Positions 269 through 36,602 of a stretch of 48,925 nt of DNA are shown in pieces. Under the pieces are notes generated by a model, which searched no databases, was not told the DNA's origin, and saw only the letters and a program-made list of their open reading frames with translations. The translations under genes and the position numbers were made by a program. Origin of the DNA: Batkoa obscura (lineage: Eukaryota); contig JASVEC010000115.1 in assembly GCA_030770535.1 (NCBI GenBank), positions 1-48,925 on the forward strand, read 5' to 3'. Position 1 is the first letter of the stretch. Every line of letters begins with the position of its first letter.

Positions 269-373
269 AGGAAAGCTCTTGTAACTACTCTAGGTACCCT
301 TCATAATCTTTCCTTTACGGTCCTTACCGCGTAACCATCCCCAAAAACCCTTAACCCCCTTAACTTTCAAACT

Positions 374-3300
374 ATGGTCAATAATAGCTTTATACCCTAT
401 TTTGCTGACTCAAGATATCTTCTTGATAACTGTCAACAATTGTCCATAACTGGATATGACATGGGTAGTAGTAATGAAGAAGAAGTTAGTATTCTCACTC
501 CAGAAATAGATATTGCTGCTCTGAAACGAGCAGCACTGCCTTCACATGTTATAAAATCGGTTGCTACCTATGGAGCTGTTCCTATGGACGTTCTTAGTGG
601 TGATTTTTCTGCTTGGAGACAATATCAAAATAGTGGCTCTAGTACTCAAATCACTTTTCGTGCTCAGTATCAAACGGTACCTACTCTCTCCCACGCTCAA
701 CAATATTTAGTAGAGTTCTTACACAACAAACTCATCCAGATGGTTGGTGAACTCAACCGTCTTTCAACTCACACTAATGAATTGTCTACCTCTTTGAGCT
801 CACTTCTAGGTACAGTTAATAATCTCTCCATGGTTATTAACCAAAACAATGATATAACCACCCTCTTAAATAAATTCCATACTAGTAAGTTAAATGAGTT
901 CGACCAAAGGCTCAAAAATACCATTAGTTATGAAGTTCATAGAGATTTGGTAAAAGAAGTAAGAGACTTCAAGGCTGAATTGCATCAGCTTGATACCAAC
1001 TTACACTCCGAGATAGTTAAGATCTCTGACGAGATCAATATTTTCCTCACTGAGATCAATGAGCATACTGCCGAAAGAATCGCAAATATTAATGGAAAAG
1101 TGAAAACCGCTTTCACAGAACTTCACAGATCGTTGATGACTACATTTAACGAGTACAATCATCGTTTATCTTGTATTGAACAATCCCCTGCGTCTGCATC
1201 AACCAAAGATTCCAGAATCTTGGCTTTAAAACAAGATTTAGCTATTTGTAATCAACAACCGGCTCAACAAGTAACTATCATCAACCAGCTCATCACTTCC
1301 AATAATAGTTTGAAGGAACAAATTAGATTGGATAAAGAGCAATCAGTAGCTGACTGGAACGAAATTTCGCGCAACATACAGAGTACTAAAGAAGAGCTCA
1401 TTCTTCTTCAGACCAAGGTAGCCTCCAATACCAGTCAAATCAAGGCGTTTTCCTGTAATTGTAAGAAGAGGCGTATTGGTGTTTCAGTATCTCGCTCTAG
1501 ACTCTCGAATTATAGAAATATTACAAAATACAAAGTGTATGATCTAAGTGATGGTACTATACAGTCTATCCTTGATACTGAATATCAAATGAACCCCAAG
1601 TGTCGTGATTCTATTTACTCAGTACAATCGGATGATCAGCCAAAAAAAGGAGACTTACCTCAAGTTTCTACATACTTGTCTCGATCGCTTCCCAGAATGA
1701 CTACCGCACCTACTGATGGTATTTACTCCAGAAATCCTGCTATAAGGTCCAATGCTGCGTCAATACGACCTCGTGTACAACCCTACCCTGAGGTTAACCT
1801 AGATAATCCTTTCAAAAATAATAACAAAGACAAGTCACCACATAACGCTTCTCAAATCACTCAACGTGCATTCTATGAACAACCTTTACCTTACTACATA
1901 CAACCTGATCCAATTCCTGCTCAACGCAATTATAGTACATTATATAATAATCATGATGGTCATTGTAGCCATTATGGACCTTCTGGTAACAATCAAAGCT
2001 CGCATAGCTTCTCAACATACCGCCGCGACTATCCAAGAAGCTCCTTACCTATTAATAACAAGTTTAATTTTAATCTCTTATTCAATCCAAGCGAAATTAC
2101 TGCTACCAGCTTTATCAAAGCTCTAGAAGCTTGTCTTGATGCAAACAACTGGTCCTATGAGTGTCGCTCCCAATGCCTCTTAGATCAGCTACAAACAAAA
2201 GAATTTTCCTGGTGCATGACCTTACCTGATGACTTACGTAGTAACTGGAACTCTTTCAAAAAGGCATTTATAGATCATTACGATTTTGATGTAAAAATGG
2301 AAGCAAAAAAAGTAGCCCTTTTATCTTTACGTTTAGACGACGAAAGTAAACTTGAGAATTTCATTACAAACGTAAGAAATCGTGCTAATGCCTTAATTTC
2401 CTGTGAAAAGTTAAGCGTTACAGACCTCCGCCTGGCCTTCCAACGAAACCTTCCAAGTCATATCGCACGTCTTTTTATATATCCTCACCATAATATCATT
2501 AATGTTACACAGATGATAGAAATTTTAGAGCTGTATCTTAGAAGTTCAAAAGGGGAAGTTAGATCCAAAAAACTGTATGCTAATCATATAGATAGCAAAA
2601 CTCTGGACTATCGTATAATAAACTATCGGACTAATAATAAATCAATTGACGTTACTCTCTGCGGATTAGTATCTGTGATTTATCAATATCCAGACATAGC
2701 GTATAGGCAGTCTGGAATCCCCATTATTTCCCCTAAGAACTTATTAATACCGCCTAAATCACAGGTAGTGCTAGATACTAAAATCTTATTATGGGTACCT
2801 AAGGAGTTCCATCTATCTATATACAGTATAGAAGGTGTTTCACGATTAGAGCCTTTAGTTATGCCTGGAGTCTTAGGTGACAATATGAATGAGACTATTA
2901 AGTTATTGCTTGCAAGCATCACTAAAAAAGATATCAATATTTCTAGAGGTCAACAGGTTGGAATCATACATCTAGAAAATAACGCTTTGATCAGTACTTT
3001 CAGTAAATTTGCAACACTAGAAGAATTCCAAATTTATGAAGTCCCTAATGGCCAGACCTCGTTTATCAAAAAAGACACCATTGGACATCTAAATCAAGAT
3101 GAACAACTCCAATTTTATAAATTGCTGGAAGAATATAAAGAGATTTTTGGAACTTCAGAAGAAGATATTGACTGTGCCCGCAACACTAAACATAAAGTAT
3201 ATACGTGCGATCCACTACTTGTCGCAACCAAAGCGTATCATGAATCTCAGTCCGAACTTAGGGCAGAACGAGAAGAAGTCCAAAAACTCCTAAATTTAGG

Positions 3301-5800: not shown

Positions 5801-5833
5801 AAGATTTACTAAATCAAATCATAGGGTGTGAAA

Positions 5834-6293
5834 TGTGAGATATCGCTTTGTCACCTCCATGATTAATTGCAATACAGCAATCACTTAAGTCATTATGTCC
5901 TCGAGTTTAGAGACAATCAATTCCATGCTCTTAGTTTGATTTGCTATGAGAATTTGTATCTTCGTCCTAAAAAATATTATCTCCATGTTTTGATATCTAT
6001 ACTTGTCGGAATATAAAAGAGACTCTGGAACATAGTAACTCGAGGCTTTTTAACTGAATTATTCCTTGATATCTCCTACATTTAGTAAAGCTATTAAATC
6101 TTCTTGATAATATCTTATATAGATTTTACAGTAATATTATTTATTCTATTTGTCTTACATAGTCTGTAGCCTATTACGCATTATTTTTCATAACTCAAGT
6201 CTATCTTAGCTACATAAACTAAAACCTTTCAACCTATGGCTAGTCAATCAACCAAAAAGTACTTAACTTTAATCACTGAGTACCAATTTCATA
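5834..6293 (+). repeat. 3' LTR of the Gypsy element
   Basis: Starts TGTGAGATATCGCTTTGTCA, ends GAGTACCAATTTCATA (family ends TGTGAAAT..ATTTCACA); TATAAAAG box inside. Confidence 0.92.
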
Positions 6294-7312
6294 GCATTTT
6301 AGGGATTTTTATAATAAAAAGATATTTTAAAATATTAAATAAAATAGAAAAATATTGTCTAATTAATTTCAAAGTTTAAGGTTTTTATTTACAAATATAA
6401 TAAAATCAATAGTTTAATTATTAACAATAAGAAAACAAATATAATTTTAAAAAAAATAAAAAAAATAAAAAATATAAAAAATATAAAAAATATAAAAAAT
6501 ATAAAAAATATAAAAAATATAAAAAATATAAAAAATATAAAAAATATAAAAAATATAAAAAATATAAAAAATATAAAAAATATAGGTATTGTATTTAACT
6601 AAATATGATAAATTATATTATTACCCAGTATCTAATAGATTAAAGATATCTAATGTAATTTTAATTAAAGTTATAAAATTTACAAAACAAGAAAATTATA
6701 AAATTAATTCCAACTTATTTTACAAGAATAAGTGAAAGTTTAAAATTTTTAATATTTACTAAATAAGTAAATAGTTTATTAAGTGATAAAAATTAATTAC
6801 TAAATATTAATATTACTTAATTTATTGATAGTTAAGCTAATAGATGGTTGAAAAGTAAGTAGCTATAATAATAAATAAAAACTATTATTATATTATTTGT
6901 ATTATATAAAAATAACTAATTGTAACTTTGAGGCTAATCACTCCCTCTTATGCAGCTATTTATTAACTTAGTAATATATTAATAATGTAATTATGATATT
7001 AAAACTATTGATGTATTTTATAGCAAATCCATAATATTGAGTATAAAACAGTTAATAGTAAATATCTCTCAATGAAGTTTTATAAGAACACGTATTTATT
7101 GACATATTATAACTTTGATTAATATTAATATATAAGTTATATTAGTAAAGTCCTTGCTAATATGGCAATTTATATTAGATCTAATAAAAATTCTGCTAAC
7201 TTACAACATATCTTATAACAAATAGTTTAAAAGTGCTAAGTACTTTTGTTTTTTAATAAATAGTTTATCTTTATATAGTTCTAAGCAAAGTTCTAAAATA
7301 TAAAATATAAAA
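5841..7312 (+). repeat. left arm of 1472-bp inverted repeat
   Basis: Reverse complement of 9662-11133; only one mismatch noticed by eye, near the outer end. Confidence 0.97.
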
Positions 7313-7906: not shown

Positions 7907-8497
7907 TCATTTAAATATAGGCTCCAAGTTGATATCCAGTGTATCATAGAGCTCCATATTTTGTGTAGTAGAATATGGCTTTGGTGAAGGTTTATTCCTT
8001 TTCTTTATATTTTGCCTAGGTTTATATTTATAGTTAGGATATTTTGTCTTATGTATGGATTTCTCGGCTTCAGCCATCTCCAAGTATCTTTGTTTAACCT
8101 CAAAGCCTTCATGTTTCCACATTCTACCAATAATCTGTGATATTTTTTTATTGTCGGCCATTTTGTTTGTACTACTTATCTCCTTATGTTTATCTTTCCT
8201 ATAAAGTATAAATGCATTTGCAGGCCTAGGTATTTTGTCAGTATCATCTGTTTTAGATAATGTTTTGCTTTCGCTTGAGCTATCTTCATCTTTTCTGATA
8301 ATTATCTTTTCTGCAAATGACTTTGAAATTAATAAAGGATAATGACCTTCTGGGATAAAAAAACAATCTTTCTGGTCTAAAGAAAATTCATCTTTCAAAG
8401 GCTCCATTCTGATACCATCGCCATTTTCAATGAGGTAGTCAAACTTACTTTCGTCCAAAAAAAGCAGGTGCTCATTTAACCTTAAAGGGCTATGCAT
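7907..8497 (-). CDS. MATA-type HMG-box transcription factor (SexM/SexP, MAT1-2-1, Ste11, Rox1-like class), single exon
   Basis: KIPRPANAFILYRKDKH..ISQIIGRMWK..YLEMAEAEK..H..KYPNYKYKPR sequence-specific HMG box. Confidence 0.93.
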   Translation of the reverse strand: MHSPLRLNEHLLFLDESKFDYLIENGDGIRMEPLKDEFSLDQKDCFFIPEGHYPLLISKSFAEKIIIRKDEDSSSESKTLSKTDDTDKIPRPANAFILYRKDKHKEISSTNKMADNKKISQIIGRMWKHEGFEVKQRYLEMAEAEKSIHKTKYPNYKYKPRQNIKKRNKPSPKPYSTTQNMELYDTLDINLEPIFK

Positions 8498-8625
8498 TTT
8501 AGTTGTATGTTGATTGTTGGTATAACGTCAAGGTTGATTGGTGGCTAATTATTTTTGATTTATCCTCTTTAGATTCTTTTTCTAATACTTACTCTTTAAA
8601 ATTGAAACAAAAGTAATTAAGCAAC

Positions 8626-9617: not shown

Positions 9618-10680
9618 GGGGTGTCGGAATTGATTTGATTTCTTTTATCTAACTTTCAAGATTTTATATTTTATATTTTAGAACTTTGCTTAGAACTATA
9701 TAAAGATAAACTATTTATTAAAAAACAAAAGTACTTAGCACTTTTAAACTATTTGTTATAAGATATGTTGTAAGTTAGCAGAATTTTTATTAGATCTAAT
9801 ATAAATTGCCATATTAGCAAGGACTTTACTAATATAACTTATATATTAATATTAATCAAAGTTATAATATGTCAATAAATACGTGTTCTTATAAAACTTC
9901 ATTGAGAGATATTTACTATTAACTGTTTTATACTCAATATTATGGATTTGCTATAAAATACATCAATAGTTTTAATATCATAATTACATTATTAATATAT
10001 TACTAAGTTAATAAATAGCTGCATAAGAGGGAGTGATTAGCCTCAAAGTTACAATTAGTTATTTTTATATAATACAAATAATATAATAATAGTTTTTATT
10101 TATTATTATAGCTACTTACTTTTCAACCATCTATTAGCTTAACTATCAATAAATTAAGTAATATTAATATTTAGTAATTAATTTTTATCACTTAATAAAC
10201 TATTTACTTATTTAGTAAATATTAAAAATTTTAAACTTTCACTTATTCTTGTAAAATAAGTTGGAATTAATTTTATAATTTTCTTGTTTTGTAAATTTTA
10301 TAACTTTAATTAAAATTACATTAGATATCTTTAATCTATTAGATACTGGGTAATAATATAATTTATCATATTTAGTTAAATACAATACCTATATTTTTTA
10401 TATTTTTTATATTTTTTATATTTTTTATATTTTTTATATTTTTTATATTTTTTATATTTTTTATATTTTTTATATTTTTTATATTTTTTATATTTTTTAT
10501 ATTTTTTATTTTTTTTATTTTTTTTAAAATTATATTTGTTTTCTTATTGTTAATAATTAAACTATTGATTTTATTATATTTGTAAATAAAAACCTTAAAC
10601 TTTGAAATTAATTAGACAATATTTTTCTATTTTATTTAATATTTTAAAATATCTTTTTATTATAAAAATCCCTAAAATGC
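9618..10680 (-). mobile_element. decayed Sola2 3' half, inverted copy, TIR at 9618
   Basis: GGGGTGTCGGAATTGATTTG resembles the family TIR; continues into the right IR arm. Confidence 0.75.
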
Positions 10681-11133
10681 TATGAAATTGGTACTCAGTG
10701 ATTAAAGTTAAGTACTTTTTGGTTGATTGACTAGCCATAGGTTGAAAGGTTTTAGTTTATGTAGCTAAGATAGACTTGAGTTATGAAAAATAATGCGTAA
10801 TAGGCTACAGACTATGTAAGACAAATAGAATAAATAATATTACTGTAAAATCTATATAAGATATTATCAAGAAGATTTAATAGCTTTACTAAATGTAGGA
10901 GATATCAAGGAATAATTCAGTTAAAAAGCCTCGAGTTACTATGTTCCAGAGTCTCTTTTATATTCCGACAAGTATAGATATCAAAACATGGAGATAATAT
11001 TTTTTAGGACGAAGATACAAATTCTCATAGCAAATCAAACTAAGAGCATGGAATTGATTGTCTCTAAACTCGAGGACATAATGACTTAAGTGATTGCTGT
11101 ATTGCAATTAATCATGGAGGTGACAAGGCGATA
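9662..11133 (-). repeat. right arm of 1472-bp inverted repeat (includes LTR copy 10681-11133 lacking the first 7 bp)
   Basis: Reverse complement of 5841-7312, same length and same number of 9-mer repeats. Confidence 0.97.
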
Positions 11134-11895
11134 CTTTGCAAAGATTTATAAATTTAAAAACTTAAAGTTTAAACTAATTTTTAAGTAACTTCTAAAACCA
11201 ATTTAGATATCCCTATATAGTATTAAGTTAAAGATTTAATGTTCAATTAGTCAAAAACCTAAACAGTTGTTAGTAAAATACAAATCCAATAGATTTCAAA
11301 TATTTTATGCTGTATTTGTTTTAATAAATATAATATAACAGCAAAAAAATATGAAATAAAGCTAAAAAATAAATATTTTATAACAAATTAAATTAAAATA
11401 AAGCTTTTAATGAAAACAACCAAACGTTTTTATAAACTTAACTATAAAATATAAAATATAAAACGTAAAATAATTAAGTCTTTCGTTTAACTTTTACATA
11501 CAGTTAATTAGCTATAAGTTATAATGTTTGTAAACTATGTAGGTTTAAATCATCAATATATTTATTACTAGTAAAATCTTATTAATTTGAGTTTTGACAT
11601 TAATTTATATATCTGATTAAAGATATAAGTTATTATAACTATTTTTTATTATTGTTATATTTTAACTAAATAAAATAATTTGCATAAATATAGTAATAAA
11701 TTTTAATAAATAAGCTTATAAAATTATGAAACCTTATTTTTTATATTTACATCCATTTTTAATCTATTTTATTTTAGCTTTTACTCATGTTTCATAATGA
11801 AATTGTCAAACGTAATAAATTTATTTACTATTTAATTAAACCAAAAAGTTCAAATATATCATATTAGTATATTTATAATTTAAAGTTTAATATAT

Positions 11896-13876: not shown

Positions 13877-14346
13877 ATATCTATGATTTAGTTATCTATA
13901 TAATTAATAAATTAGAATCCATATATGAAAATACTCTCTTTTTTAGTTTTCATTATTAATATAGCATCCCAAATAATTAGATAAGAGTATTGTTAGTTTA
14001 ATTCTTTATTATAAGAGAGTACAATGTAAAATATATGTACTCAATAGATAAATATGTAGTGGTATATCATCTAGATATTAAAACTTTGACACTTGCATTT
14101 CCTTACTTTGCCATTTGAATTCAAAATTTAGATACTAATAAAGTTTTATTGATAGTTTTTGTAAATTTCAAATAACTTAAGCTATTTTATTAAAGGAATA
14201 CAATTAAAAACAAAAAATTCTAACCTTCTTTATACACTATTAAAGATGTGAGAGCTTATAACTATTTTACTATTCTAATCCTTTGAGCACCGAATATTTT
14301 GCAAATTTGATTGATTAGGTGGTAATTTTTACTGATTTTATGCCAA

Positions 14347-14746
14347 TGTGAAATATCGCTTTGTCAGTCCCATGGTTAATTATTTTGATTTGTTATGAGA
14401 ATTTCTAGCTCCATCCCAAAGAATATTATCCTCTCATTTTGATATTTATACTTTTCAGAGTATAAAAGAGTTTACAGAATATAATAGTTCGAGGCTTTTT
14501 AACTGAATTAATCCCTGATATCTCGAACATTTAATAAAGCCACTAAGTTTTCTTAATAGTATTTTACATAGATTTTACATTAGTATTGTCTATTCTATTT
14601 GTCTTATATAGCTTGTAACCTATTACGTGCTATTCCTCATAACCCAAGTCTATCTTAGTCACATAAACTAAGACCTTTCGACTTATAGTGTAGTCAACCC
14701 AGCAATAGCTGTTCTTGACTCCAAACCCTGAGTACCAGATTTCACA
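14347..14746 (+). mobile_element. solo LTR, 400-bp internally deleted variant, TSD CCAA
   Basis: TGTGAAAT..ATTTCACA ends, CCAA on both sides. Confidence 0.93.
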
Positions 14747-15240
14747 CCAATTAAACCAGTTTTTTAAAATTGAATACAAAAAGGTTATTTCAGTTTAAAC
14801 CATCTGAATAGGTGTTTGTGATTTTATTTTGATTTAAAATCATTTAATTAGGGATAAAAGTGATTCTATGATGCAAAATCTTTTACCTTGTCATTAAGAC
14901 TCAAAATATTGATTAGTAAAGCTAATGTTATATTATTAGATATCCTTGAAATACTGTAATTTTGAAAACTTTTTAACTAGCAGTAACATGCTGCATTAGC
15001 AAATGCTACTTTTTACAAAGTAAACACTACCTTATTTTATGAGCTATAGCCTTATGTAGTTAAATTTGACCCAAAACCGAGGTTTTTTTGCTATATTTCC
15101 TTTTCTAATATTATTTTTCATATGTTTTTGTTTGAATTTACTTTAAAAAATTATTAATAGCTTTATCTATTAAAACATCATAAAATAGGGATATATTTTT
15201 TTGTTTAAGAATTTTACTAACAATCTTTCTGCTTAAATAG

Positions 15241-15703
15241 TGTGAAATCTGGTACTCATGGTTTGGAGTCAAGAACAGCTATTTCCGGGTTGACTACACT
15301 ATAAGTCGAAAGGTCTTAGTTTATGTGACTAAGATAGACTTGAATTATGAAGAATAGCACGTAATAGATTACAAGCTATATAAGACAAATAGAATAGACA
15401 ATACTAATGCAGAATCTACGTAAAATACTATTAAGTAAACTTAGTGGCTTTATTAAGTCTAGGAGATATCAAGGAATAATTCAATTAAAAGCCTCAAACT
15501 ACTATACTCTGTAAACTCTTTTATACTCTGAAAAGTATAAATATCAAAATGAGAGGATAATATTCTTTTGGATGGAGCTAGAAATTCTCATAGCAAATCA
15601 AACTAAGAACGTGGGATTGATTTTTTCTGAACTCAAGAACACAGCAGCTTAGGCGATTGTTATGCTATAATTAACCATAGGACTGACAAAGCGGTATTTC
15701 ACA
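15241..15703 (-). mobile_element. solo LTR (463 bp), no matching TSD
   Basis: Reverse complement of the family LTR; flanks ATAG / GTTG; truncates a MITE (15188-15240) on one side and a Sola2 remnant on the other. Confidence 0.93.
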
Positions 15704-16203: not shown

Positions 16204-16666
16204 TGTGAAATATCGCTTTGTCAGTCCTATGGTTAATTATAGCATAACAATCGCCTAAGCTGCTGTGTTCTTGAGTTCAGAAAAAATCAATCCCACGTTC
16301 TTAGTTTGATTTGCTATGAGAATTTCTAGCTCCATCCCAAAGAATATTATCCTCTCATTTTGATATTTATACTTTTCAGAGTATAAAAGAGTTTACAGAG
16401 TATAGTAGTTTGAGGCTTTTAATTGAATTATTCCTTGATATCTCCTAGACTTAATAAAGCCACTAAGTTTACTTAATAGTATTTTACGTAGATTCTGCAT
16501 TAGTATTGTCTATTCTATTTGTCTTATATAGCTTGTAATCTATTACGTGCTATTCTTCATAATTCAAGTCTATCTTAGTCACATAAACTAAGACCTTTCG
16601 ACTTATAGTGTAGTCAACCCGGAAATAGCTGTTCTTGACTCCAAACCATGAGTACCAGATTTCACA
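16204..16666 (+). mobile_element. solo LTR (463 bp), TSD ATGT
   Basis: Complete ends, ATGT on both sides. Confidence 0.95.
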
Positions 16667-16695
16667 ATGTTTAAGTCAAATTAGTAATAGGACAT

Positions 16696-17424: not shown

Positions 17425-18648
17425 TCAAAGCGACTTGATTATTTGGTCTAACATTACTTGAACTGCACGATCCACATCAGCTGCATTATTACTACTAGCA
17501 GTAGAAGATAGTTCTGAGCTTATGTCAATGGTCAACATTACATCATCTATAATTTTGAGTCATTACTCAAATAGAAAAATAAAATGCTTACCAGAACCTC
17601 TTCTCCAAGCTTTAACCTTAAATCTACTTGTTAATCTTTTATAAGTTTTCATCACCGCTGATTGGAGGGTAGGATCTAAACAGAAAGCAATGAAATTAAG
17701 CGACCCAGCTAGTGATGATCCCATTATAGACCAGTTTTTTAGATATATGGGACGTGTTCCATTTATATCAAAGTACGTCTGTGAAACAATAACACCAGTA
17801 TGGGTGAATATCATAATACATGGGTATAATACTCTAAATAAAGTTTTAATGCTAAATCAAAAACACATAATGCTCACATCCTTAACCCCAGCTGTCTAAC
17901 ACTACTAATTGCTTTACTTGATGTTTCTATTGCTCTGAAATATCTATGTTTTTTAATAGCATCTAAGTTACTATTTAACTTGATTATAACTAAAATAACC
18001 ACGACAAGGAGGTAAATCATTACAACTATATAGGTGAGCTGAAATACTAATAAATCAAAAAATTTTGCATCGCTTGCATTAGCAATAACAATATAACATC
18101 CTTGATCTTTAGCATACCCGAGCTTACCAAGAGCTATTCATAAAATGTAAATAAATTTATAATGCACTAATTATATACCTAATGGGATCGTTGCACATAT
18201 AAATGCTACTGTCAAAGGTATAACCCAATATAGGGCCTCGACTTTCTTGGTGGTATTTTTCTCTTGTAGAAATGTTCGTTGTAAGTTTATTCCAACACAA
18301 GCGTTGAAAAAAGCATACAATAATGGGAAAAAGAAAAACTGCCATCCAATAAATGTACACATCGCACTCGGTGACTTGGCATATGGTCTTATCCATAAGT
18401 GTGTGGTATGCAGCCAGATATCATAGCATGATATGACTGTTTGTAAGCGCAAAGAAACACGGTTAACTAACTTCCAGTCATAGATACCTAGATTGAATGT
18501 TTAATATCCATCATATTATTTTTTTCTAAAAGACAATACTAAGGCATATCATTGTTAGTATAACTAGGAATGCAAAGAACGCAGACGTTTTTGATGTTAT
18601 TGGGGTATAGTATAAGTAGATCTGATTAGTTTCTGGCCGTCCGCTCAT
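17425..18648 (-). CDS. 7-transmembrane GPCR-like receptor (Git3/cAMP-receptor-like), paralogue A, 5 exons
   Basis: Spliced reading MSGRPETNQ..YDWKLVNRVSLRLQ..C..INLQRTFL..YW..GCY..LYPCIM..LNFIAFCLDPT..DQIIKSL*; seven hydrophobic segments, ECL1/ECL2 cysteines. Confidence 0.85.
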
Positions 18649-20606
18649 TTTTTTAAGTTAATGAGACCCAAGAAGTTCACTTATTTAGAATAATTTTTTA
18701 TACTTTATGCTTGAGTGCTTTATTTATCTGAACAAGCTATACATACGCTATATTATATTTTTTAATCTGTAAACAAGTTAAATGTAAAATATCCTGTTTT
18801 TATGTTACTCTTTGGTAAAATAAGAAAACTTGTTGAACTTGGCATGAGTTTATTGTAATGAATACACGTTTTATAAGATTGGTTACTACATAATATAAAG
18901 GAATAGAAAATCACGGGTAAGTATTTTACATCACCTAAACCAGAACTGAGCTCGGATAATTTAAAGTTGCATTCTAATATACTGTAATGGACTATATTAA
19001 TAAATAGTAAATATTTACTAGTATATGCTTGTAGAATCCATTTTGATTTTTGAACTTCAAATCATTTGCATATCATGTTAGAAGACGTATTTGTTTATAA
19101 AATACCACTAGTTTATAAAGTAAATCTTAAAGCATTAAAAAATACACAAGATTCTATTTTTGTTCATCAATTTTCATCAATAGGTATAAAAATTATAACA
19201 TCAAAAATTACTGGCTGCAAAATAATATTCTCAAATACTTTAGAAAGTTTTGAACCTGAATAAAAATGTTTTATCAATATAAAAGTATAATGAGCTTTGG
19301 TGATTAAGTTGAATCTCGACATCTTTTTTATTAGCATTACGGAGTCCAAGAGACTAGTAGGATGTAGATTCACCATATTATTAGTTGTTTGATATAAGAA
19401 GTAGAAGCGCGCTATAGAACTGCTATATGAGGTTAAATTCATATAAACGTATTCTTATTTAGAACCGATAATTAAAGGTGTAAAATAGATATTTCATTTT
19501 TAAGTTTCCTTAAACTAGTTTGTATTAATTCAAGAATATCAATCATATTATATATATTTTCTGTTATGTTCGCATTGCCTTTTAAAAAAGTAAATTCAAC
19601 AAACAGGCTTCTATCGCATTTTTTAAAGACAAATAAGTAGCCAAAATCATATTATTTAAAAAAACGTTATACCTATATTGTATCCTTTTGTTCTAATTCA
19701 CAAAATTTTCATTAGAAAATATAAAACATGCTGTTACTTTTTGGAACTATAATAGATGTTAGCTTAACGTAAATAGTACCCATGTATTAGTATTTTATTT
19801 AGTATAGCATGAGTGCTTACTGTATAGTTATAATAAGTATATTTTCATGCTATTTGAGTTTTTTACTTAATCCTCAAAAAAATATTAGAAAGACAGGTAT
19901 GGACTATAACATCATTGCTAAAGCATTTAAATATGCCAATTTAAAAGCTATTACTGGTTGATTTTAGATATGAGTTGGATATTTTCAATTCTATATTCAA
20001 TTAATTTAATCATTGTTACTATTTTTATTTTTAAATTCACCAAATGCAAAATTAGAAATGCTCAATCCACGTCTAAAACAATTTGATAGTATCCCTTAAA
20101 AATACAATTATGCTTAAATTATGTAAAGGTAAATTCAAAAATTAAAATTCTTTAAACGCCAAGGCAATTAAAAATGAGTGTATATGATACGAGAAAGAAC
20201 AATTATTTAAATTAAGGGTTTTTGATTTTAAAATTCTAATACAAGACTTTATTAATCGTACCCTTTTAAGTCCTCTAACTTAGGGTTGGTTTTTTTACAG
20301 AAGAAGGTTCTTGATAAAAGAAATATTTTATAAATTAAAAATATAGAACAGCACTATATAACTTTCTAATTAACTCTCAAACTGATGAAAATTTTATTCT
20401 GGAGTCATTAACTATTCAATGAATGATTAAGTTGATATTAAACTAGTATTGTGATTAAATTTGACAAATATAGTAAAAAAGGATTTTTGTTGAACATTTA
20501 AATTCATTACCAAAGAGAGTGGCACTTCATTAACTGTTTATTTAGAAAATAAAGTTATAAATAGAACCAAAATTACACTTAACCTTTAAATTTAATATCT
20601 GAAAAA

Positions 20607-21822
20607 ATGAGCGGACGGCCAGAAACTAATCAGATCTACTTATACTATACCCCAATAACATCAAAAACGTCTGCGTTCTTTGCATTCCTAGTTATACTAA
20701 CAATGATATGCCTTAGTATTGTCTTTTAGAAAAAAATAATATGATGGATATTAAACATTCAATCTAGGTATCTATGACTGGAAGTTAGTTAACCGTGTTT
20801 CTTTGCGCTTACAAACAGTCATATCATGCTATGATATCTGGCTGCATACCACACACTTATGGATAAGACCATATGCCAAGTCACCGAGTGCGATGTGTAC
20901 ATTTATTGGATGGCAGTTTTTCTTTTTCCCATTATTGTATGCTTTTTTCAACGCTTGTGTTGGAATAAACTTACAACGAACATTTCTTCATAATAAGGCT
21001 GTTACTAAATGGATAGAAATTGCTTATTGGGCTATATCTTTGACAGTAGCATTTATATGTGCAACGATCCCATTAGGTATATAATTAGTGCATTATAAAT
21101 TTATTTACATTTTATGAATAGCTCTTGGTAAGCTCGGGTATGCTAAAGATCAAGGATGTTATATTGTTATTGCTAATGCAAGCGATGCAAAATTTTTTGA
21201 TTTATTAGTATTTCAGCTCACCTATATAGTTGTAATGGTTTACCTCCTTATTGTAGTTATTTTAGTACTGCTAAGGTTGTCAAAAAACATCAATACCATC
21301 CAAAATCAAGGTTTTTCTACTGGTTCTGATGCTTCTGTAAAAGCTGTAAAATATGTAAAACAATTAGGCTATAGAATGTAAACATTGTAAAAAAAATTAA
21401 ACTTTTGATTAAAACTTTTTTAGCATTTTGTACCCAGCTATTATGATATTCACCCATACTGGTGTTGTTGTTTCACAGACGTACTTTGATATAAATGGAA
21501 CACGTCCCATATATCTAAAAAACTGGTCTATAATGGGATCATCACTAGCTGGGTCGCTTAATTTCATTGCTTTCTGTTTAGACCCTACGATTCATGAAGC
21601 CTTTAAATCACTTTATTATAGATTTGTATTAAAGAAAGATTTGAACGCTGATAAGGATCATAACGAAGGTAACTATGATACCAAATTTTAGTAATATATA
21701 GTAATTTAAATTTTCAAGGAATTTATCTTAGCGGTGGGATTGACAAAAATAGTACAAACCATGAAGATGGAAATTTCAATAATGAAGACACTGCTCTAAA
21801 AAAATTTATTAGGACTTTATAA
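20607..21822 (+). CDS. 7-transmembrane GPCR-like receptor, paralogue B, 5 exons (introns about 20716-20767, 21077-21121, 21378-21423, 21669-21718)
   Basis: GT-AG splicing yields a continuous 7TM ORF ending ..ALKKFIRTL*; largely identical to paralogue A. Confidence 0.87.
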
Positions 21823-21876: not shown

Positions 21877-23768
21877 GGGGTGTTTTTAGTTTCACTACTT
21901 TTTCCATTTTTAAGCGCTATTTGAGTGGAAAATTTATTGGTAAAATCCTTAAAAATACATCCTTATATTTTATCATTAGTGCTTTATAACAAGATAGTAA
22001 ACCTTGAACTAAAACAAAGTTTACTTAATGAATCTGTAGTTTTTTATTTTAATAAACTTATTCAATATTGAATAAAACTATAACTTTTGAAGTCAACTAA
22101 AAATATTTAAAGCAATTATAAGGTTATAAATGTTTGTTCAAATCTTCCCGTGCTTCTCTATTTACTGAGTGTCTCAGGATCATTTATTTGGAGGTCGAGT
22201 GTACCATCCTCAGGAGCTCTTAACAAAGTCCACTCAATCACCTTATATTATCCTATGTTCTCTTGATGTCTGCCATGAGTAACTTCATTTTTAAATCCAC
22301 TTCTTTCTTTAATAATTGTCCTAGGCTAATCCTGACTCCACTTTACTCTTCCTTAACGTATTACGTGTAACAAATAAAATAAGGATATGGGAGTGTTTTT
22401 TTTGACTTCATTACTTTTTCCATTTTTTAAGCGCTATTTGAGTGGAAAAGCTATTAATGAAATTCTTAAACACAAAAATACATCCCCAATATGTTTTTTG
22501 TTTAATAATTTTACTAACAATCTTTGCACTCAAATAGCGCTTAAAAAATGAAAAAAGCAATGAAACAAAGAAAACATCCCAATATAATCTTTTGAACCTT
22601 GAATTTAAAAAAATTATTTAATACTTATGAAAATAAAGCTTTATTTACAATATTAGTTGGAATTTTTAAAAAAAATTACTTTGTAGTTTATTACACTATT
22701 TCAATTAAAAAAACAGTGCTATATATATAACAAATCACTATATTTGTAAAAATATTAATAGTTAAATTAAGAATTAAAACCAGGATTAATGCTAGTCAAT
22801 TTTACTTAATTTAATTGGCATTTTTCTCAAATAATTTGTTTTTTGCTTTATTATTAAAGTAAATTTTGAGTTTCTTCGAGCTACTTATTTTGTATTAATA
22901 GTAAAATTCTTAAACACAAAAATACATCCCCGTATAATATCACTTAAGTTGTTGCGTTCTTGAATTCAGAGGCAATCAATTTCATACTTTTAGTTTGATT
23001 TGCTATAAGAATTTGTATCTTCGTCCTAAAGAATGTTATCTCCATGTTTTGATATCTATACTTATCGGAGTATAAAAGAGCTTCTAAAAGATAATAGCTC
23101 TGGGCTTTTTAACTGAATTATTCCTTGATATCTCCTACACTTAATAAAGCCACTAAGTTTATTTAATAGTATTTTACATAGATTTTACATTAGTATTGTC
23201 TATTCTAATTGTCTTACATATTCCGTAGCCTATTACGTATTATTTTTCATAATCCAAGTCTATCTTAATTTGTGACTAAGATCTTTCGACCTACAGTGTA
23301 AGTCAATCAGACAATAGCTGTTTTTGACTCCAATCACTGAGTATGAGATTCGATGATTATTATATAAAATCTAATACTTAAAAAGATCATAAAAGCTTTT
23401 TAATCAACTGTTTATGATAAATCAAAAAAAAAATTTGATAATTAAAATAAACTTATAAATAAAAAAATAATATGCAATAATTAAGTTATATAAAAACTAT
23501 AAAATAAAGATAAAAATAAGTTTATTAAATTCAGCAAAATTTTTTGAAAAAGTCATTATTCTGAAAAGTTTCTTTATATATTGAATTAAAATACTATAAA
23601 TATTAGATACAGGCATTAAAATATAAAACAATGTTTTTTGTAGTTAATAAATAAAAAATTTTATAGTAAATTTAAATGAAAATTTTTAAATTAGAGGATG
23701 TTTTTTTGGTTATCACTCTTTCCATTTTTTAGGCGCTATTTGAACGAAAAGGCTGTTAGTAAAATTCC
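21877..23768. mobile_element. cluster of MITE copies (about 21877-21963, 22389-22487, inverted 22491-22580, 22900-22931 partial, 23694-23768)
   Basis: Shared core TTTTAAGCGCTATTTGAGTGGAAAA..TTAGTAAAATTCTTAAA. Confidence 0.8.
22939..23352 (+). mobile_element. older, 5'-truncated solo LTR
   Basis: Homologous to the family LTR (TATAAAAGAG, AATAAAGCCACTAAG, CACTGAGTA) with degenerate ends. Confidence 0.85.
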
Positions 23769-26237: not shown

Positions 26238-26922
26238 GTTGACTTTTATTTGATATTTGGTTCATTAAAGTTATTGACGATATTTTATGCCCTTCTCTTT
26301 TAAAACTTTAAATAAATAATAGAAAATATTATCTTATATTGAATTATTCTCTAATCTTAATTGAAGTTAAAACTAAACATTTAATAAACAAATCACTCTT
26401 AAGTATCCAAATTAATTAAACTGACACAATAAAATAAATGATTCATTAAATTAATATGTAAAAATTAAAAAATACCTTGAACAGCAAAATAAAAAGTAAG
26501 TCTGATAGTATCATATAAAAATAATAAAGACTTTCAAGCCCCTAAGCCCATTGCTATACTAACTGATAAATCAATATAAAGGCAAGGTAAGTCCAATGCT
26601 TGGCCAATGAAAAAGATAAGTTTTCAAGTGTATCTAAACAAATAGAAGGTAAACCTAATACTTTGAATTAAATTAACTAAAATAATATAAGGATATTGGG
26701 GTTGCCCGAATTGGTTTCAGAATTTACTTAGAAATATACTATTTCTGTTAAATATTTAATAGATATATAATATATAACTATATGATTATATAATTATATA
26801 AATACAGTTATTTGACTTTATTTTTTGTTGAAATAAAAACAAAATGAAAACTTTCAGAACTAAACTTCGAAATGGAATTTTTGAAAATTTCAATACAATA
26901 GGGAAGAGTACACAATATAAAC

Positions 26923-27386
26923 TGTGAAATATCGCTTTGTCAGCCCCATGGTTAATTATAACATAACAATCGCCTAAGCTATTATGTTCTTGAGTTCAGA
27001 AAAAATCAATCCCACGTTCTTAGTTTGATTTGCTATGAGAATTTCTAGCTCCATCCAAAAGAATATTATCTTCTCCTTTTGATATTTATACTTTTCAGAG
27101 TATAAAAGAGTTTACAGAGTATAGTAGTTCGAGGCTTTTTAACTGAATTATTCCTTGATATCTCGAACATTTAATAAAGCCACTAAGTTTACTTAATAGT
27201 ATTTTACGTAGATTCTACATTAGTATTGTCTATTCTATTTGTCTTATATAGCTTGTAACCTATTACGTGCTATTCCTCATAATCCAAGTCTATCTTAGTC
27301 ACATAAACTAAGATCTTTCGACTTATAGTGTAGTCAACCCGGAAATAGCTGTTCTTGACTCCAAACCCTGAGTACCAGATTTCACA
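26923..27386 (+). mobile_element. solo LTR, no matching TSD (AAAC / CCCA)
   Basis: Complete TGTGAAAT..ATTTCACA ends. Confidence 0.93.
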
Positions 27387-27423
27387 CCCATGTATTTATT
27401 TATATACTACAACATTGATTAAT

Positions 27424-27823
27424 TGTGAAATCTGGTACTCAGGGTTTGGAGTCAAGAACAGCTATTGCTGGGTTGACTACACTATAAGTCGAAAGGTCTT
27501 AGTTTATGTGACTAAGATAGACTTGGGTTATGAGGAATAGCACGTAATAGGTTACAAGCTATATAAGACAAATAGAATAGACAATACTAATGTAAAATCT
27601 ATGTAAAATACTATTAAGAAAACTTAGTGGCTTTATTAAATGTTCGAGATGTCAGGGATTAATTCAGTTAAAAAGCCTCGAACTATTGTATTCTGTAAAC
27701 TCTTTTATACTCTGAAAAGTATAAATATCAAAAGGAGAAGATAATATTCTTTTGGGTGGAACTAGAAATTCTCATAACAAATCAAAATAATTAACCATGG
27801 GACTGACAAAGCGATATTTCACA
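27424..27823 (-). mobile_element. solo LTR, 400-bp deleted variant, TSD TAAT
   Basis: Reverse complement of the 14347-14746 type; TAAT on both sides. Confidence 0.93.
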
Positions 27824-28723
27824 TAATATTAATATATATATTATATTAGTAAAAGGCTTATTAATATGGGAATTTTTATTAGGTCTAGTAGAAACTCAAC
27901 TAATTTACAATATAAACTATAATATAATAATTTAGAACTGTATCAGGTACTTTTCCTTTTTAATAAAAAATTAAATAAAAAACAAAACCAATTTGGACAT
28001 CCCCATATGGTATTTGAAATTTTCATTATTTTTAACTGGAAACCAATTATTGCTCTATATTTTGTAATTTCAACAATGCTAACCTATGTATTTGTTTGAT
28101 AATATACCATTAAAACATGAATTTTAAAAAGTCGATGATGTTAGTAAAACTATCTATTTTTAAAATTCCAATAAACTTAAATATCTGGATTTTCAATAAT
28201 CAATAAAGATTCAAATATTTTAAAATTAATTATTAGTTAATATTCAATAGTTGTTTTGTTAGTACATGTAATTGGATTAGTAACACCAAATCCAAAATTC
28301 CAGCTAGGTTAGGGTAATTCGGTAGGAAACAGTAGGTTTTTAATTCTCAGCATTATATTAGTAAGAATCACAATTTTACTAGGCTAGTTCAATCGAAAAG
28401 AATATTATTACATCCAAAAAAAAAACCAATTTAACGTACTTTTTGTCCTAGTAAATAGTTTAAGCGAAAACTCCGACTAGGCCAGCCTAATAAGGAAGGA
28501 GCAGTGCCCCATACCTTTATTCAATTAAACAATCAAACTTCTCATTACTTTTAATTTTAAAAGTAATTCATCATTACTAATAATGTTATACAATGGTATA
28601 GCATAAGAAACATCACAAGGGTTCCGACCCTTATATTACCATCTTACCAGTGCTACGAAAAAGTATAAAAGCTGCCATTTAGTATCCTTGTAATTTAAAA
28701 CAAATACATTTGAAAAAACAAAA

Positions 28724-30626: not shown

Positions 30627-33091
30627 GGGGCTGTCCTAATTGGTTTCAGAATCTACTTAGAAATTAGTCCAAATTTAAAATTTCAAGTTTGTGTCCAATA
30701 TAACGGTTAAATCTAAAAAGCCTAAAATTAAATGTCTCTATTTAAAACTTATTTTAGTTGTTTCCTTTTCTTAAATAGCTAATTTTCCTAACTATGTATT
30801 TTATGTTAGTTCTGTTAGATATTTAACAGATATATAATATATAACTATATGATTATATAATTATATAAATACATAATTATATAAACACAGTTATTTGACT
30901 TTATTTGACTTTATTTTTTGTTGAAATAAAAATAAAATGCAAACTTTCATAACTAAACTTCGAAATGGAATTTTTGAAAACTTCAATACAATAGGGAGGA
31001 GTACACAATATAAACATTGTAATTCATTTACATCAATCTTAAGAGCTACTTATAACAACCCAAGGTTTATGGAATTTTATAATAAAACAAAACAAAGAAA
31101 AGATATATTATCAAAGTTTACTATCGATAATAATAAACTTAATCAAGTAATGTATAAAATTAGTGCTTTAAGGGAAACAGGAAACAAAAACCAGCAAGTA
31201 GCGTTATTATCAACTATAGCTTCAGTATATTCTTTTGATGAATGTAAGAGTTTTGGGTTTAATATAAATAGAAATCAATATGATTATTCAAAAACAAGTA
31301 ATAATAATAAAATATCAACATTAAAACCTATTATTAAAAATACAAAAAAAATTAAAGATGACCAAATTGAAACTATCATACAATATTTACTAAATGATTC
31401 AACTATTTCATCAAGATTTAATAAAAAAAATAACGATAGTAAATATTCATCAGATAATATATATATATTAAATAAAAGTAGAAGAATGATATATAGTAAA
31501 TATTTGAATGATCTAAGAGATAAAGCAGTAGCTAGGTCAACGTTCTTTAAATATATACCAAGTAATTTCAAAAATCCAGCAAGAAAAACGGATCTATGTA
31601 ATATATGTACCCAGTATACAGTTAGAAAAAAGTTATTTGAAAATAAAATAAATACAGCAAAAAACAAAGCAGAGATACAAGAAATTTTCAACGAAGAAGA
31701 AAAATTATACAAATTACATAAATTCTGTGTTGATACTCAAAAAAACACATTTAATGAAACTATTAAAAAATTAAATAACAAAAGTTGTATAATAGTTTTA
31801 GATTTTAAACAAAATATGGAAATAGGAACAAGACCAGATTCAATAAATCTAGATCATTATAATAAACAAGCTATATCAGTATTAGGTTTTGGTGTATTAT
31901 ATTTAAAAGATGATAAAACGATAGGCAAAGTTTACTTTGATTATTTATCTGAAATATTGAATCATGATTCAGCATATGCAGGAGATTGTTTAATCGATTT
32001 AATCTCTACAGAGCTTCTATTTAAAAAGTTTACAAAAATTAATATATGGGCAGATACAGGAAATCATTTTAGATCCCAAGAGTTTCTACACTATATGTTT
32101 GAAGAAATTCATAAAATAAATAGTAGTTTGAATGTTAATCTTAATTTTTTTGCTGAGCATCATGGAAAAAGTATAGTTGATGGGCATTTTGGAAACCTTT
32201 CAAAATGGAAAAGTAGTTTTGAAGCGTTAGGTAAAATAGAAGATATCGATCAATTAATTTCAAGATTTGAGGCTTTTATTTGTGAGCATAATAAAATTAA
32301 TAACTCAACTGTTAATAATGGGAAAACAGATATAATTTTTAAAAAGTATAAAAGAAACAAAAATACAAAAAGAATAATAGAGATGCAGGGCATTAAGAAG
32401 TATTTACATTTTATTAAACATAACAATAAACTACATTGTTATCCAGTATCTGATACATCAAAAAAAAGCGATATAGTCCCAATTAAAGTTATAGAGTCTA
32501 TAGAAAACAGAAAAATTAAAAGATCGATCCCAGCTTACCTTACGAAGATAACAGAGAATTTAAAAATTTCGATATTTACTAAGCAAGTAAGTAGTTTGTT
32601 AAATGATAGAAATAGATTGTTAAATGTTAGGATTACTTAAGTTATTAATAGCTAAGTTAATAAATAGTCAAAGAACAAGTAACTGTAATAATATGTAAAA
32701 ACTATTATTACTTGTACTATATAGGGATGGTTAATTATAGTTTTGGGGCTGACCACTCCCTCCCATGCAGCTATTTATTAACTTGGCAATATATTAATAA
32801 TGTAATTATAACATTAAAGTAGTTTATTTATTTGATAATAAATCTACGATGTTGGCTATAAAGCAGTTGATAATAAATATTTCTCAATTAAGCTTTATAA
32901 GAACATGTATTTAAGATCTAGTAGAAATTCAACTAACTTACAGTATGAGCTATAATAGAATGATTTAGAACTGTGTTTGGGTACTTTTGTTTTAATAAAA
33001 GATGTGATTTTATAGAATTTTAAGCGAAGTTTTTAAAATACAAAATTTTTCAAAAATTGGATAAAATAATGAAACTAATTCAGACAACCCC
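30627..33091 (+). mobile_element. autonomous-looking Sola2-type DNA transposon, 22-bp imperfect TIRs, 4-bp TSD AATT
   Basis: GGGGCTGTCCTAATTGGTTTCA..TGAAACTAATTCAGACAACCCC, AATT on both sides, single intact ORF. Confidence 0.88.
30937..32640 (+). CDS. DDD transposase, Sola2-like (567 aa)
   Basis: KTDLCNIC..H Zn motif; VLDFKQN, IWADTGNHFRS, FFAEHHGKSIVDGHFG catalytic motifs. Confidence 0.85.
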   Translation: MQTFITKLRNGIFENFNTIGRSTQYKHCNSFTSILRATYNNPRFMEFYNKTKQRKDILSKFTIDNNKLNQVMYKISALRETGNKNQQVALLSTIASVYSFDECKSFGFNINRNQYDYSKTSNNNKISTLKPIIKNTKKIKDDQIETIIQYLLNDSTISSRFNKKNNDSKYSSDNIYILNKSRRMIYSKYLNDLRDKAVARSTFFKYIPSNFKNPARKTDLCNICTQYTVRKKLFENKINTAKNKAEIQEIFNEEEKLYKLHKFCVDTQKNTFNETIKKLNNKSCIIVLDFKQNMEIGTRPDSINLDHYNKQAISVLGFGVLYLKDDKTIGKVYFDYLSEILNHDSAYAGDCLIDLISTELLFKKFTKINIWADTGNHFRSQEFLHYMFEEIHKINSSLNVNLNFFAEHHGKSIVDGHFGNLSKWKSSFEALGKIEDIDQLISRFEAFICEHNKINNSTVNNGKTDIIFKKYKRNKNTKRIIEMQGIKKYLHFIKHNNKLHCYPVSDTSKKSDIVPIKVIESIENRKIKRSIPAYLTKITENLKISIFTKQVSSLLNDRNRLLNVRIT

Positions 33092-34392: not shown

Positions 34393-36602
34393 CTTTTATT
34401 TTATGATGTTTGTAAAATAATTAATAAAGCCTTTTTATAAAGCCTAACCATATCCTATTAATAGTTATGAATTAGTGTTTATTATTAAATTTTCTTAAAT
34501 ATAGAACCCCTACTTGTTTAATTTTTTTGTGCATCTACTAGAAAATTATTAAAAGAACTTAAATAATACAAATTTACTAATATATTATAGATACATTTAA
34601 AATCCAAGTCTATAAAAAAATAAGCTTATAGCTTGGTAATAAAATACTCTATTTTTCCTTCAATACAGAATTTCATAGAAAACACACAATAATTACTATC
34701 AACCATGTTGTATTTATCTGCTGGTTACAGTTAAAAGATTATGAGCTGCTTTAAAGCTCATAAGCATGTGTTTGTTTAGAACATTGGGATTTATTAAATC
34801 TAAAAGTAAAGATTTGAAAGTTTACAGCAACAATGTTATTACAATACACAATTTAATATTGATTTAACAACTAAATTTTATTCTCAATATATGTATGGAC
34901 TGCTAATATCGCTGTTATACAATATAGAATTTTATTATTGCTACAGCTTTAGTGAAATAAACATAAATGTAAAATTGTACAAACCAATCAACAAATTAAA
35001 GATAAAGGCGTAGAAAAAATATGCATCTTTGAAATTGTTTATAAAGAATATGTATTGTAAAAATTACACTATTCTTTGGTACTATATATACTATCTTATC
35101 ACAATACCTTAGAAAAAATTTGGTTCTCATATACTTAATAACTATATAGACTTTTACTCCACTATTAATATATAATATTCAATTGTATAAAGTTTGAGCC
35201 TGCTGTCACTATAATAAAATTAATATTATAGTAAATTGGTAAATATTGATTATTAAATTATAAATAAGCTGATTTTGAGTAAGTTAGCTACTAAAGAAAT
35301 AGAATAGATATAAACGCATCTATTTAGAGACTTTGAAAATTAAAAACATTCCGTTCAAATAGTGTATAGTTAAATTGCCATTAACTATAATAGCCAATTA
35401 TCAATTAATTAATAGACTTAACACTATATAATGTTTTTATAATTATCGATAAAAAATGAGATTCCTCGAATTATCTATCGCTATCATCGTTAACCCCTAT
35501 TTATAGATTGTTTTCTTTCAAACAGTCACACAATGAAATCAACCAGATGTTGTGTATTTAATATTTGATGATAGTCCAACAGATTATATTCTACAAATAA
35601 TAAATACTTTGTGTTTAAAGTACTTAAAGCCACTTTTTCTTTATTGAATCTAATGCTAATTAAAGATCTGAATTTATTAAATATATATATGATAAAAGTC
35701 ATCAAATTACTCCTTATAGCTATATTCATAGGAGTTTATTTGAACTGTCTACCTATACCTTTAAGCAAGAAATGAGCACTCAAAATTTAGTCCTTCACTT
35801 TTTGGGACAAATTTTTTAAGCACTGTATATGATAAGTCTGGAATTAGGAGAAAATCAGGTTGCTGTTGGTATTTTAAATATTTAGGCTATATCAAGTTGG
35901 TATTAGCACATATACTAATAATCGAAAAGTAAAAAATACCGACCTGAGTTTAATAACATTTATGTTAATATAGTTGAAAAATCAGGCTTCAAAACTTATA
36001 TTTTATTGTTTTACAATATAGCCTCACTAAAAAAGACGCAAAAATTAGCAAAGGTGTTAGTTTGGTAAAATCGAAAGGTTTCTTTGCCTTCATAGCTTCA
36101 TAAAAACGTTCTAGAAGGGGCCCCGCTGATCGAGATGTCCCTACTCAACAAAATACTACTGATGAAAAAGAAAAAAAATACTAAACCAGGAACCTTAGCA
36201 CTTTTGCAATAAGCGGAAGCATCTTTATTAAAATGGTTAGCGGAAAAACCATTTCAGAAACATAGAATTCTGTTAATAGAGAAGGAAATATAGTAATCAC
36301 TATAAGAACTTGGGCTCCTCTTAGAAGAAAAGAAGATAAAACATTCAATTTAAAAGCTCAAGCTCAAGCTCTTATTAACTAAGAGAAAAAATCAGTTACT
36401 TCAGAAAATGAAAATAACTTTGGTGTAGAATCAAGTCTTCCAGTAACCAGCTTTGAAAACGCTACTGGCCTAAAATAGTAATGGGGGGTCTTGGCTCATA
36501 GGAGGTGGTATAAGAGTTTATCGCCCAACCCATACTTTAGAAAGTTCAACCAAGAGTTACCTGGATTAACAAAGAAACCCCTAATTATAACAGATTGTGA
36601 AC

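Follow-up and report, generated by a model that had tools for sequence, protein, structure and literature searches.

A head-to-head pair of predicted fungal G-protein-coupled receptor genes with near-identical outer halves and divergent inner islands

Introduction

A 48,925-nt stretch of Batkoa obscura DNA (contig JASVEC010000115.1 of assembly GCA_030770535.1; the window) contains two divergently transcribed genes, here called A and B, each predicted to encode a seven-transmembrane (7TM) receptor. How can two neighbouring genes be identical over the parts of a membrane protein expected to face the ligand and differ over the parts expected to face the cytoplasm? An earlier reading of the letters (the original prediction) answered that gene conversion homogenises the pair while selection keeps the intracellular faces distinct. 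Herein, we examined the gene models, the family fold, the contigs of independent sequencing runs and the placement of the differences. The evidence strongly supports conversion between two old duplicates; it is also consistent with the idea that A and B are G-protein-coupled receptors (GPCRs) that would present one ligand face to two signalling outputs.

Results

Gene models of A and B

A and B lie back to back in the window with their 5' ends 1,948 nt apart. Both genes consist of five exons separated by four GT..AG introns, which are 44-52 nt long and occupy matching positions (Table 1), and the coordinates and peptides originally given for the inverted pair agree with the recomputed ones. 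The unique spacer between them presumably holds the promoters of both genes. The two upstream regions are unrelated, 30 of 40 nt differing just upstream of the first identical block, and within the window tblastn detected no member of the receptor family other than A and B.

The public annotation covers just residues 178-340 of A, as the Neoconidiobolus thromboides protein P0043 (99.4% identical), which agrees with introns 3 and 4. N. thromboides is an aphid-infecting fungus. No public protein entry for B or for full-length A was found by profile and word-based homologue searches. The word-based searches returned only P0001, P0002 and P0043, left exon 2 without a match at near length, and found no orthologue of A or B in another species. 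Five single-exon ORFs of the window had no entry in the collection searched.

Identical blocks alternate with divergent islands

Compared as mirror images, A and B differ at 125 of 995 aligned sites, and homogenised blocks alternate with divergent islands along the genes (Table 1). The claimed identity from the N-terminus to the end of transmembrane helix (TM) 3, intron 1 included, is exact over 386 nt and begins 5 nt upstream of the ATG. In 20,000 permutations of the 125 differences the longest identical run was 99 nt at most, and chance is ruled out as the source of the 386-nt run. The near-identity claimed for 21038-21249 also stood, with one difference: exact identity ends at 21237 and the first mismatch is at 21238. 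The third block, likewise as described, carries a single difference (V240I).

The island stretches are about 50% identical between A and B. In island 1, intracellular loop (ICL) 2 with the inner half of TM4, 10 of 17 residues differ and the proportion of synonymous differences (pS) is 0.87. Island 2 differs at 29 of 52 residues, with a pS of 0.88 in ICL3; its nucleotide differences by segment are 4/29, 56/111 (21267-21377) and 6/15, and the final 17 nt of intron 3 are nearly common to both genes. In island 3, 13 of the 18 helix-8 residues differ, and the distal tails barely align. The edges of the islands are graded (86% identity at inner TM5), as expected from erosion by conversion tracts, and the differences also touch TM4, TM5 and TM6 on their inner sides (8/81 inner-TM residues). 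The described pattern was thus confirmed, with refinements: ICL2, ICL3 with intron 3 and the tail differ, and the identity also takes in ICL1 together with inner TM1, TM2, TM3 and TM7.

Receptor family and predicted fold

A profile built from P0001 and P0002 retrieved 566 relatives at E ≤ 0.001. The family alignment comprised 86 members: P0001, P0002 and 84 of the 148 others listed, picked for coverage. A and B scored 311 and 303 bits on the family profile, and P0001 is 48-49% identical to them. Dicty_CAR (PF05462) matched 5 of the 86 members (best E 3.2e-07), GPR_Gpa2_C three and 7tm_1 two; P0001 and P0002 had no Pfam match, and the six exon pieces of A and B matched no GPCR family in Pfam. 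These matches, with the Atlas labels given below, suggest that A and B may work like class V fungal GPCRs.

A phmmer search of the PDB with P0001 gave 0 matches. The family profile matched GPCRs there (best E 4.6e-05) and aligned the family cysteines of TM3 and extracellular loop (ECL) 2 with those of EP2 and ADGRL3. Both cysteines (C80 and C152) occur in A and B and show conservation of at least 90% across the 86 members; they would mark the outer face and an N-out topology.

The AlphaFold2 model of the paralogue P0001 has seven helices plus helix 8 (6-39, 47-72, 78-110, 117-140, 159-203, 209-248, 254-276 and 279-298) at a predicted local distance difference test score (pLDDT) of 87.7. All 49 Foldseek matches listed for it were GPCRs, and VIA-align against 7ept_R gave a Z of 23.0 and a root-mean-square deviation of 3.4 over 256 aligned residues. 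The nearest Atlas clusters carried Dicty_CAR (cAMP-receptor-like), GPR157 and Git3 labels, the best structure row being Dicty_CAR with a TM score of 0.71. The predicted fold, modelled on P0001 and not on A or B, thus has the GPCR arrangement of seven TM helices and helix 8. On this model the divergent stretches map to ICL2/inner TM4, TM5-ICL3-TM6 and helix 8/C-tail, in line with the cytoplasmic assignment made beforehand.

The N. thromboides annotation holds at least 10 family entries, several of them fragmentary (P0001-P0003, P0005-P0007, P0018, P0031, P0032 and P0043). P0002 and P0005 have consecutive accessions, yet they are ordinary paralogues (43/79 outer and 61/125 inner residues identical). 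As a separate observation, A, B and nine close paralogues share a C-terminal Leu (11/11), and in most of them a short, apparently amphipathic stretch precedes it. In P0001 a C-terminal helix is modelled at 334-344 (pLDDT about 60). The terminal Leu stretch survives in the tails of A and B, which otherwise do not align.

Contigs from independent runs

Nine sequencing runs contain this stretch, and six (X1-X6) were compared through contigs, whose placements are among the matches listed. In X1, blocks 1, 2 and 3 have depths of 891, 873 and 866 versus 438-473 for single-copy contigs; block 1 is one 386-nt contig and block 2 one 200-nt contig, with ends exactly as in the window. These double-depth contigs carry 3, 1 and 1 letters that are absent from both window copies. 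Given the double depth and the contig ends, the five substitutions sit in both X1 copies.

The X2 contig of the unique spacer reaches 70 nt into block 1 on either side and shows 16 differences, three of them in the first 40 nt of A and none in those of B, so the two copies of X2 differ at three sites. Two of these sites, 20617 and 20641, have the variant letters in both X1 copies, in the A copy only of X2 and in neither window copy. The copies therefore share polymorphism, the presence in both X1 copies being inferred from contig depth and ends; shared polymorphism has been described as a very strong indicator of conversion (PMC3924837, in its available part). V240I, the sole difference in the outer half, is seemingly absent in X1 and X5, judging from a contig start and the number of differences.

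An X6 contig joins upstream letters of B to an A-type ICL2. A chimeric transcript or an inversion of the spacer was considered and rejected, as contig simplification can yield such a join; spacer orientation is unreadable from contigs.

Diverged haplotypes

X3 and X4 each carry a second haplotype about 10% diverged, which could be a hybrid, a heterokaryon or a mixed culture; the two second haplotypes differ from each other in intron 1. In X4, the diverged block contigs show 14/114, 12/115 and 4/106 differences at depths of 46-57 versus 19-26 for single-copy contigs. The 12/115 contig (depth 53) has a 1-nt deletion in intron 1, and one diverged block-3 contig begins exactly at 21439. X3 has a block-1 contig that starts at 20602, with 32/279 differences and a depth of 19.8 versus 8.2 for the tail of B. 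Within each lineage the blocks of the two copies are thus closer to each other than to those of other lineages, also at introns and synonymous sites, and the ligand side, as assigned from the predicted topology, has been homogenised after the lineages split.

The tail of B is kept as an orthologue about 90% alike (33/305 differ in X3, 41/410 in X4). Among the diverged haplotypes, that of X3 also shows B-like letters in ICL2 and at the start of ICL3, and that of X4 has a helix 8 resembling the one of A (14/126). The distal tail of A (21673-21822) may evolve faster than that of B.

Expression of both genes

X5 and X6 were treated as RNA solely because their contigs skip GT..AG introns; no run is recorded as RNA. 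All four introns of A are skipped in RNA contigs. An 838-nt X5 contig placed on A skips introns 1 and 2 and has B-type ICL2 letters, at 16 of the 17 letters compared; 20 were listed, and the three that fall in a gapped region were excluded. Its 118-nt insert equals the 162-nt ICL3 stretch of B minus the 44-nt intron 3. A second X5 contig carries the tail of A with intron 4 skipped, and contigs from X6, a separate study, skip introns 3 and 4 of A and include a B-type tail end. Given these intron-skipping contigs of both types, A and B are both transcribed and spliced in two studies, and the possibility that one copy is silent was not borne out.

Age, placement and constraint of the islands

Pooled island codons gave a pS of 0.72, at which synonymous sites are saturated, and a proportion of nonsynonymous differences (pN) of 0.38, indicating that the duplicates are old and the islands constrained. 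Pooled block codons gave one synonymous change (138 sites) and one nonsynonymous change, and introns 1 and 2 are identical. Collectively, the saturated islands, the identical introns and the shared substitutions strongly support the proposed gene conversion between A and B, which we regard as nearly certain and as still under way.

The P0001 model served to divide residues 1-296 into an outer and an inner half. A and B differ at 1/138 outer versus 52/158 inner residues, and the other 14 pairs among six full-length members are 0.31-0.49 identical in the outer and 0.42-0.54 in the inner half. Since the outer half is the less conserved one in the 86-member family (0.32 versus 0.42), conversion has erased differences where the family varies most. 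The most variable outer loops of the family (ECL1, 0.16; ECL3, 0.25) are identical in A and B and ICL2 (0.47) is not; conversion spared the moderately conserved ICL2/inner TM4 and helix 8. Homogenisation also took in introns 1 and 2, which match the ICL2 island in length.

Because the differences cluster, island placement is the fair test, and a site-level Fisher test (p 2e-15) was set aside. Islands placed at random avoided the outer half in 1,385 of 200,000 trials (0.7%), and 5 of 296 circular shifts equalled the observed pattern. The claim that selection keeps the inner faces distinct thus receives indirect support from island placement and does not extend to ICL1 and inner TM1, TM2, TM3 and TM7, which were homogenised. 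Selection has probably acted on the islands at some time.

A and B each keep 17 of the 21 family-conserved inner residues, the same ones except at two positions, and a decayed decoy copy is accordingly not supported. A/B identity on the islands is at the level of any two paralogues (7/17, 12/37 and 4/17), and the ICL3 of B is nearer to that of P0032 (19/37) than to that of A (12/37). The island tree did not resolve their relationship (0/8 branches starred) and did not pair A with B; an approximately unbiased (AU) test on the islands did not reject A and B as sisters (p-AU 0.107).

Four of the five shared X1 substitutions are nonsynonymous, and each of these four lies on the predicted outer side. 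At 5 in 730 nt, the shared substitutions are as dense as the differences in the spacer (13 in 1,948 nt), so that the ligand face is not frozen but changes in step; counts this low do not allow a claim of positive selection.

Other features of the window

An inverted repeat of 1,472 nt with one mismatch encloses 2.3 kb, including an open reading frame (ORF) with an HMG box (PF00505, E 2e-16; MATalpha_HMGbox, 0.022, below the cut-off). Its arms contain a dispersed repeat and a 74% copy of 32209-32913. The unit may represent a gene captured by a transposon or a cassette able to invert, and a mating-type link is speculation. There are nine copies of the dispersed repeat, of about 400-470 nt, and a partial copy where the window begins; the copies often form inverted pairs 92-99% alike and look like the long terminal inverted repeats of a DNA transposon. 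A 571-aa ORF without a significant Pfam match has a broken inverted copy about 85% alike; from its motifs we take it to be possibly a DNA transposase. A 1,499-aa ORF presumably represents a Ty3/gypsy gag-pol with a reverse-transcriptase motif.

Table 1. Coordinates of the features of the receptor pair and its surroundings in the window
Feature	Position	Strand	Remarks
Gene A, predicted 7TM receptor, 340 aa	20607-21822	+	Open frame, GT..AG introns
Gene A exons	20607-20715, 20768-21076, 21122-21377, 21424-21668, 21719-21822	+	GT..AG, open frame
Gene B, predicted 7TM receptor, 345 aa	17425-18648	-	Open frame, GT..AG introns
Gene B exons	18648-18540, 18487-18179, 18133-17878, 17833-17592, 17546-17425	-	GT..AG; intron 4 predicted only
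Unique spacer between A and B 5' ends, 1,948 nt	18654-20601	none	Single-copy contig in X1, X2, X3
Homogenised block 1: 5 nt before ATG to TM3 end, with intron 1	20602-20987 (mirror 18268-18653)	+	0/386 differ
Divergent island 1: ICL2 and inner TM4, residues 111-127	20988-21037 (mirror 18218-18267)	+	26/50 nt differ
Homogenised block 2: outer TM4, intron 2, ECL2, outer TM5	21038-21237 (mirror 18018-18217)	+	0/200 differ
Divergent island 2: inner TM5, ICL3, intron 3, inner TM6, residues 179-230	21238-21438 (mirror ~17819-18017)	+	
Homogenised block 3: TM6, ECL3, TM7	21439-21582 (mirror 17675-17818)	+	1/144 differ (V240I)
Divergent island 3: helix 8, intron 4, C-tail	21583-21822 (B counterpart 17425-17674)	+	32/60 first nt differ
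Dispersed repeat copies	5831-6300, 10680-11136, 14346-14746, 15232-15703, 16204-16675		
Dispersed repeat copies, continued	22939-23350, 26920-27387, 27424-27824, 36600-37068		
Inverted repeat arms, 1,472 nt	5841-7312 / 9662-11133		One mismatch
HMG-box ORF	7907-8527	-	Enclosed by the inverted repeat
571-aa ORF	30925-32640	+	No significant Pfam match
Broken inverted copy of the 571-aa ORF	37064-37989	-	About 85% alike
1,499-aa ORF	335-4834	+	

Discussion

Our reading of the pair, to which we give a probability of roughly one half, is that A and B are old duplicates of a predicted GPCR whose predicted outer face is kept near-identical by recurrent conversion, one ligand being served by two G-protein couplings. 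The head-to-head copies, 1.9 kb apart, would template each other's repair, and tracts overwriting ICL2/inner TM4, TM5-ICL3-TM6 or helix 8 would be removed by selection. The identical outer halves would confer the same ligand specificity, and the separate upstream regions could let the cell set the ratio of two outputs. In solved GPCRs, these inner surfaces contact G-alpha. The islands are therefore proposed to give A and B a different G-alpha preference or efficacy downstream of the one ligand, a step for which we see an even chance. A nutrient or host cue as the ligand is a guess based on class III and V receptors (PMC13308352, in its available part). The wider idea of a paired-receptor system inside the 7TM bundle, with a ligand face changing in lockstep and islands leading to two possibly opposing G proteins, is more tentative.

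Several points weigh against this reading. The inner/outer boundaries were drawn after the data were seen, on a model of P0001 and not of A or B. The two internal islands are the sole independent observations (p ~0.007), since the tail island sits at the gene end, where tracts stop anyway, and the identity of ICL1 and of much of the inner TM halves does not follow the pattern. All read evidence consists of contigs, and contigs drop variants. Among the contigs listed, no A-type ICL2 or ICL3 was seen in either diverged haplotype; the X3 contig across ICL2 has B-like letters at a depth of 16.2, from either a dropped bubble or a homogenised loop, and the A tail in these haplotypes falls below an 80% fit past ~21645-21672. 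Finally, the family is poorly characterised, and for one class V receptor no G-alpha interaction was reported in the available part of PMC13308352.

It is possible, with a probability well below that of two couplings, that A and B share ligand and G-alpha and differ in regulation, the islands setting phosphorylation, arrestin/ubiquitin-driven internalisation, localisation or basal activity; with two promoters, one receptor might for example adapt fast and the other persist. The unrelated C-tails (Ser/Thr at 10/49 residues in B versus 5/44 in A), the unrelated upstream regions and the conserved inner residues that both copies retain all fit this. ICL2/inner TM4, however, forms its own 50-nt protected island between two identical blocks, and contact with G-alpha is a better-known role of this surface than trafficking.

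A similarly low probability attaches to the absence of any present functional difference, the islands having arisen by drift or from another paralogue and being kept because 50% heterology hinders conversion or because, with co-adapted inner surfaces, a partial swap does harm. Islands as divergent as any two paralogues, a B ICL3 closer to P0032 than to A, a tree that does not pair A with B and just two informative internal islands would all be expected. However, the N-terminus, ECL1, ECL3 and outer TM5 and TM7, which vary more in the family, were homogenised, as were two introns as long as the ICL2 island; the placement null stands at 0.7% and island pN is well below pS. Nor is import from another paralogue established, as the AU test does not reject A and B as sisters.

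Selection for identity itself, with outer TM helices matched for A-B heterodimerisation and inner loops free to drift, is improbable. In its favour, transcripts of A and B come from the same RNA runs, dimers have been put forward as an explanation for CCR2/CCR5 (PMC8877049, PMC2720389) and two fungal GPCRs heterodimerise in yeast (PMC13308352), each as given in the available parts; the identical N-terminus, ECLs and introns and the differing inner TM4-TM6 positions would nevertheless be left unexplained. As for assembly collapse or mis-polishing, near-identical repeats do collapse and the annotation has just residues 178-340 of A, but double-depth blocks in four DNA runs from four studies, X1 block ends equal to those of the window and the separation of the copies in X2 where three bases differ make it a negligible explanation.

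Comparison with known systems

The paired-receptor principle is known from leukocytes, where opposing receptors with 'merohomogenization' include KLRC/NKG2, KLRI, KLRB, Ly49 and PIR (PMC3210942), Siglec-5/14 and CEACAM being further pairs of this kind; the term itself occurs in one paper of the literature searched. According to the available text, these are likewise neighbouring genes with a ligand part homogenised within species and a signalling part distinct between paralogues. The leukocyte receptors, however, are vertebrate single-pass proteins with ligand and signalling domains in separate exons, whereas in the fungal A and B three blocks alternate with three islands and the borders lie inside exons, because one 7TM bundle threads in and out. 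Opposite signalling has been demonstrated in the leukocyte pairs, as far as the available text goes; for A and B, two different outputs are proposed.

Among GPCRs, EMR2, CD97 and EMR3 have in common an N-terminal EGF region, which lies outside the 7TM bundle and is distinct from the bundle's outer half. Concerted evolution has been proposed to conserve or co-evolve the binding region of EMR2 with CD97 and EMR3 (as cited in PMC2720389). The available part of PMC3924837 describes the primate red/green opsins as GPCR paralogues with homogenised introns and a divergent island attributed to selection, as in A and B; the opsins keep spectral-tuning sites different, whereas in A and B it is the effector side that differs and the outer side that stays identical. 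CCR2 and CCR5, GPCR genes that lie next to each other, have undergone conversion repeatedly in several lineages; in the available parts of PMC2880985 and PMC8877049 their tracts vary between lineages, lie mainly in TM regions, take in both faces, never reach the N-terminus in the bat study and, unlike those of A and B, leave no consistent outer-identical, inner-different pattern.

The fungal class V (Dicty_CAR, PF05462) and class III (Git3) GPCRs, such as GprH, Gpr4, Ta.Gpr1 and Ao.Gpr2/Gpr3, have the 7TM fold that is predicted for A and B, and gene conversion has 0 occurrences in the available parts of PMC13308352 and PMC12842992. The literature search, with most subscription journals outside its scope and sources available in part, revealed neither a GPCR pair identical outside and divergent inside nor any such case in a fungus. 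Within this literature, what is new is the occurrence inside a GPCR bundle and in a fungus.

Conclusions

Since A and B share their outer halves, 52 inner residues and the tail would account for any difference in their signalling. G-alpha selectivity in a largely orphan receptor class thus becomes directly testable, even before a ligand is known if a constitutive readout works. As the annotation has a fragment of A and B was not found in it, such pairs may be overlooked in short-read genomes. If our reading is true, the pair would be a natural chimera experiment that marks coupling determinants, with a scannable signature that draft assemblies hide, and the paired-receptor logic of vertebrate immunity would have arisen independently in a fungal GPCR, its conversion tracts resolved to the in-and-out threading of helices.

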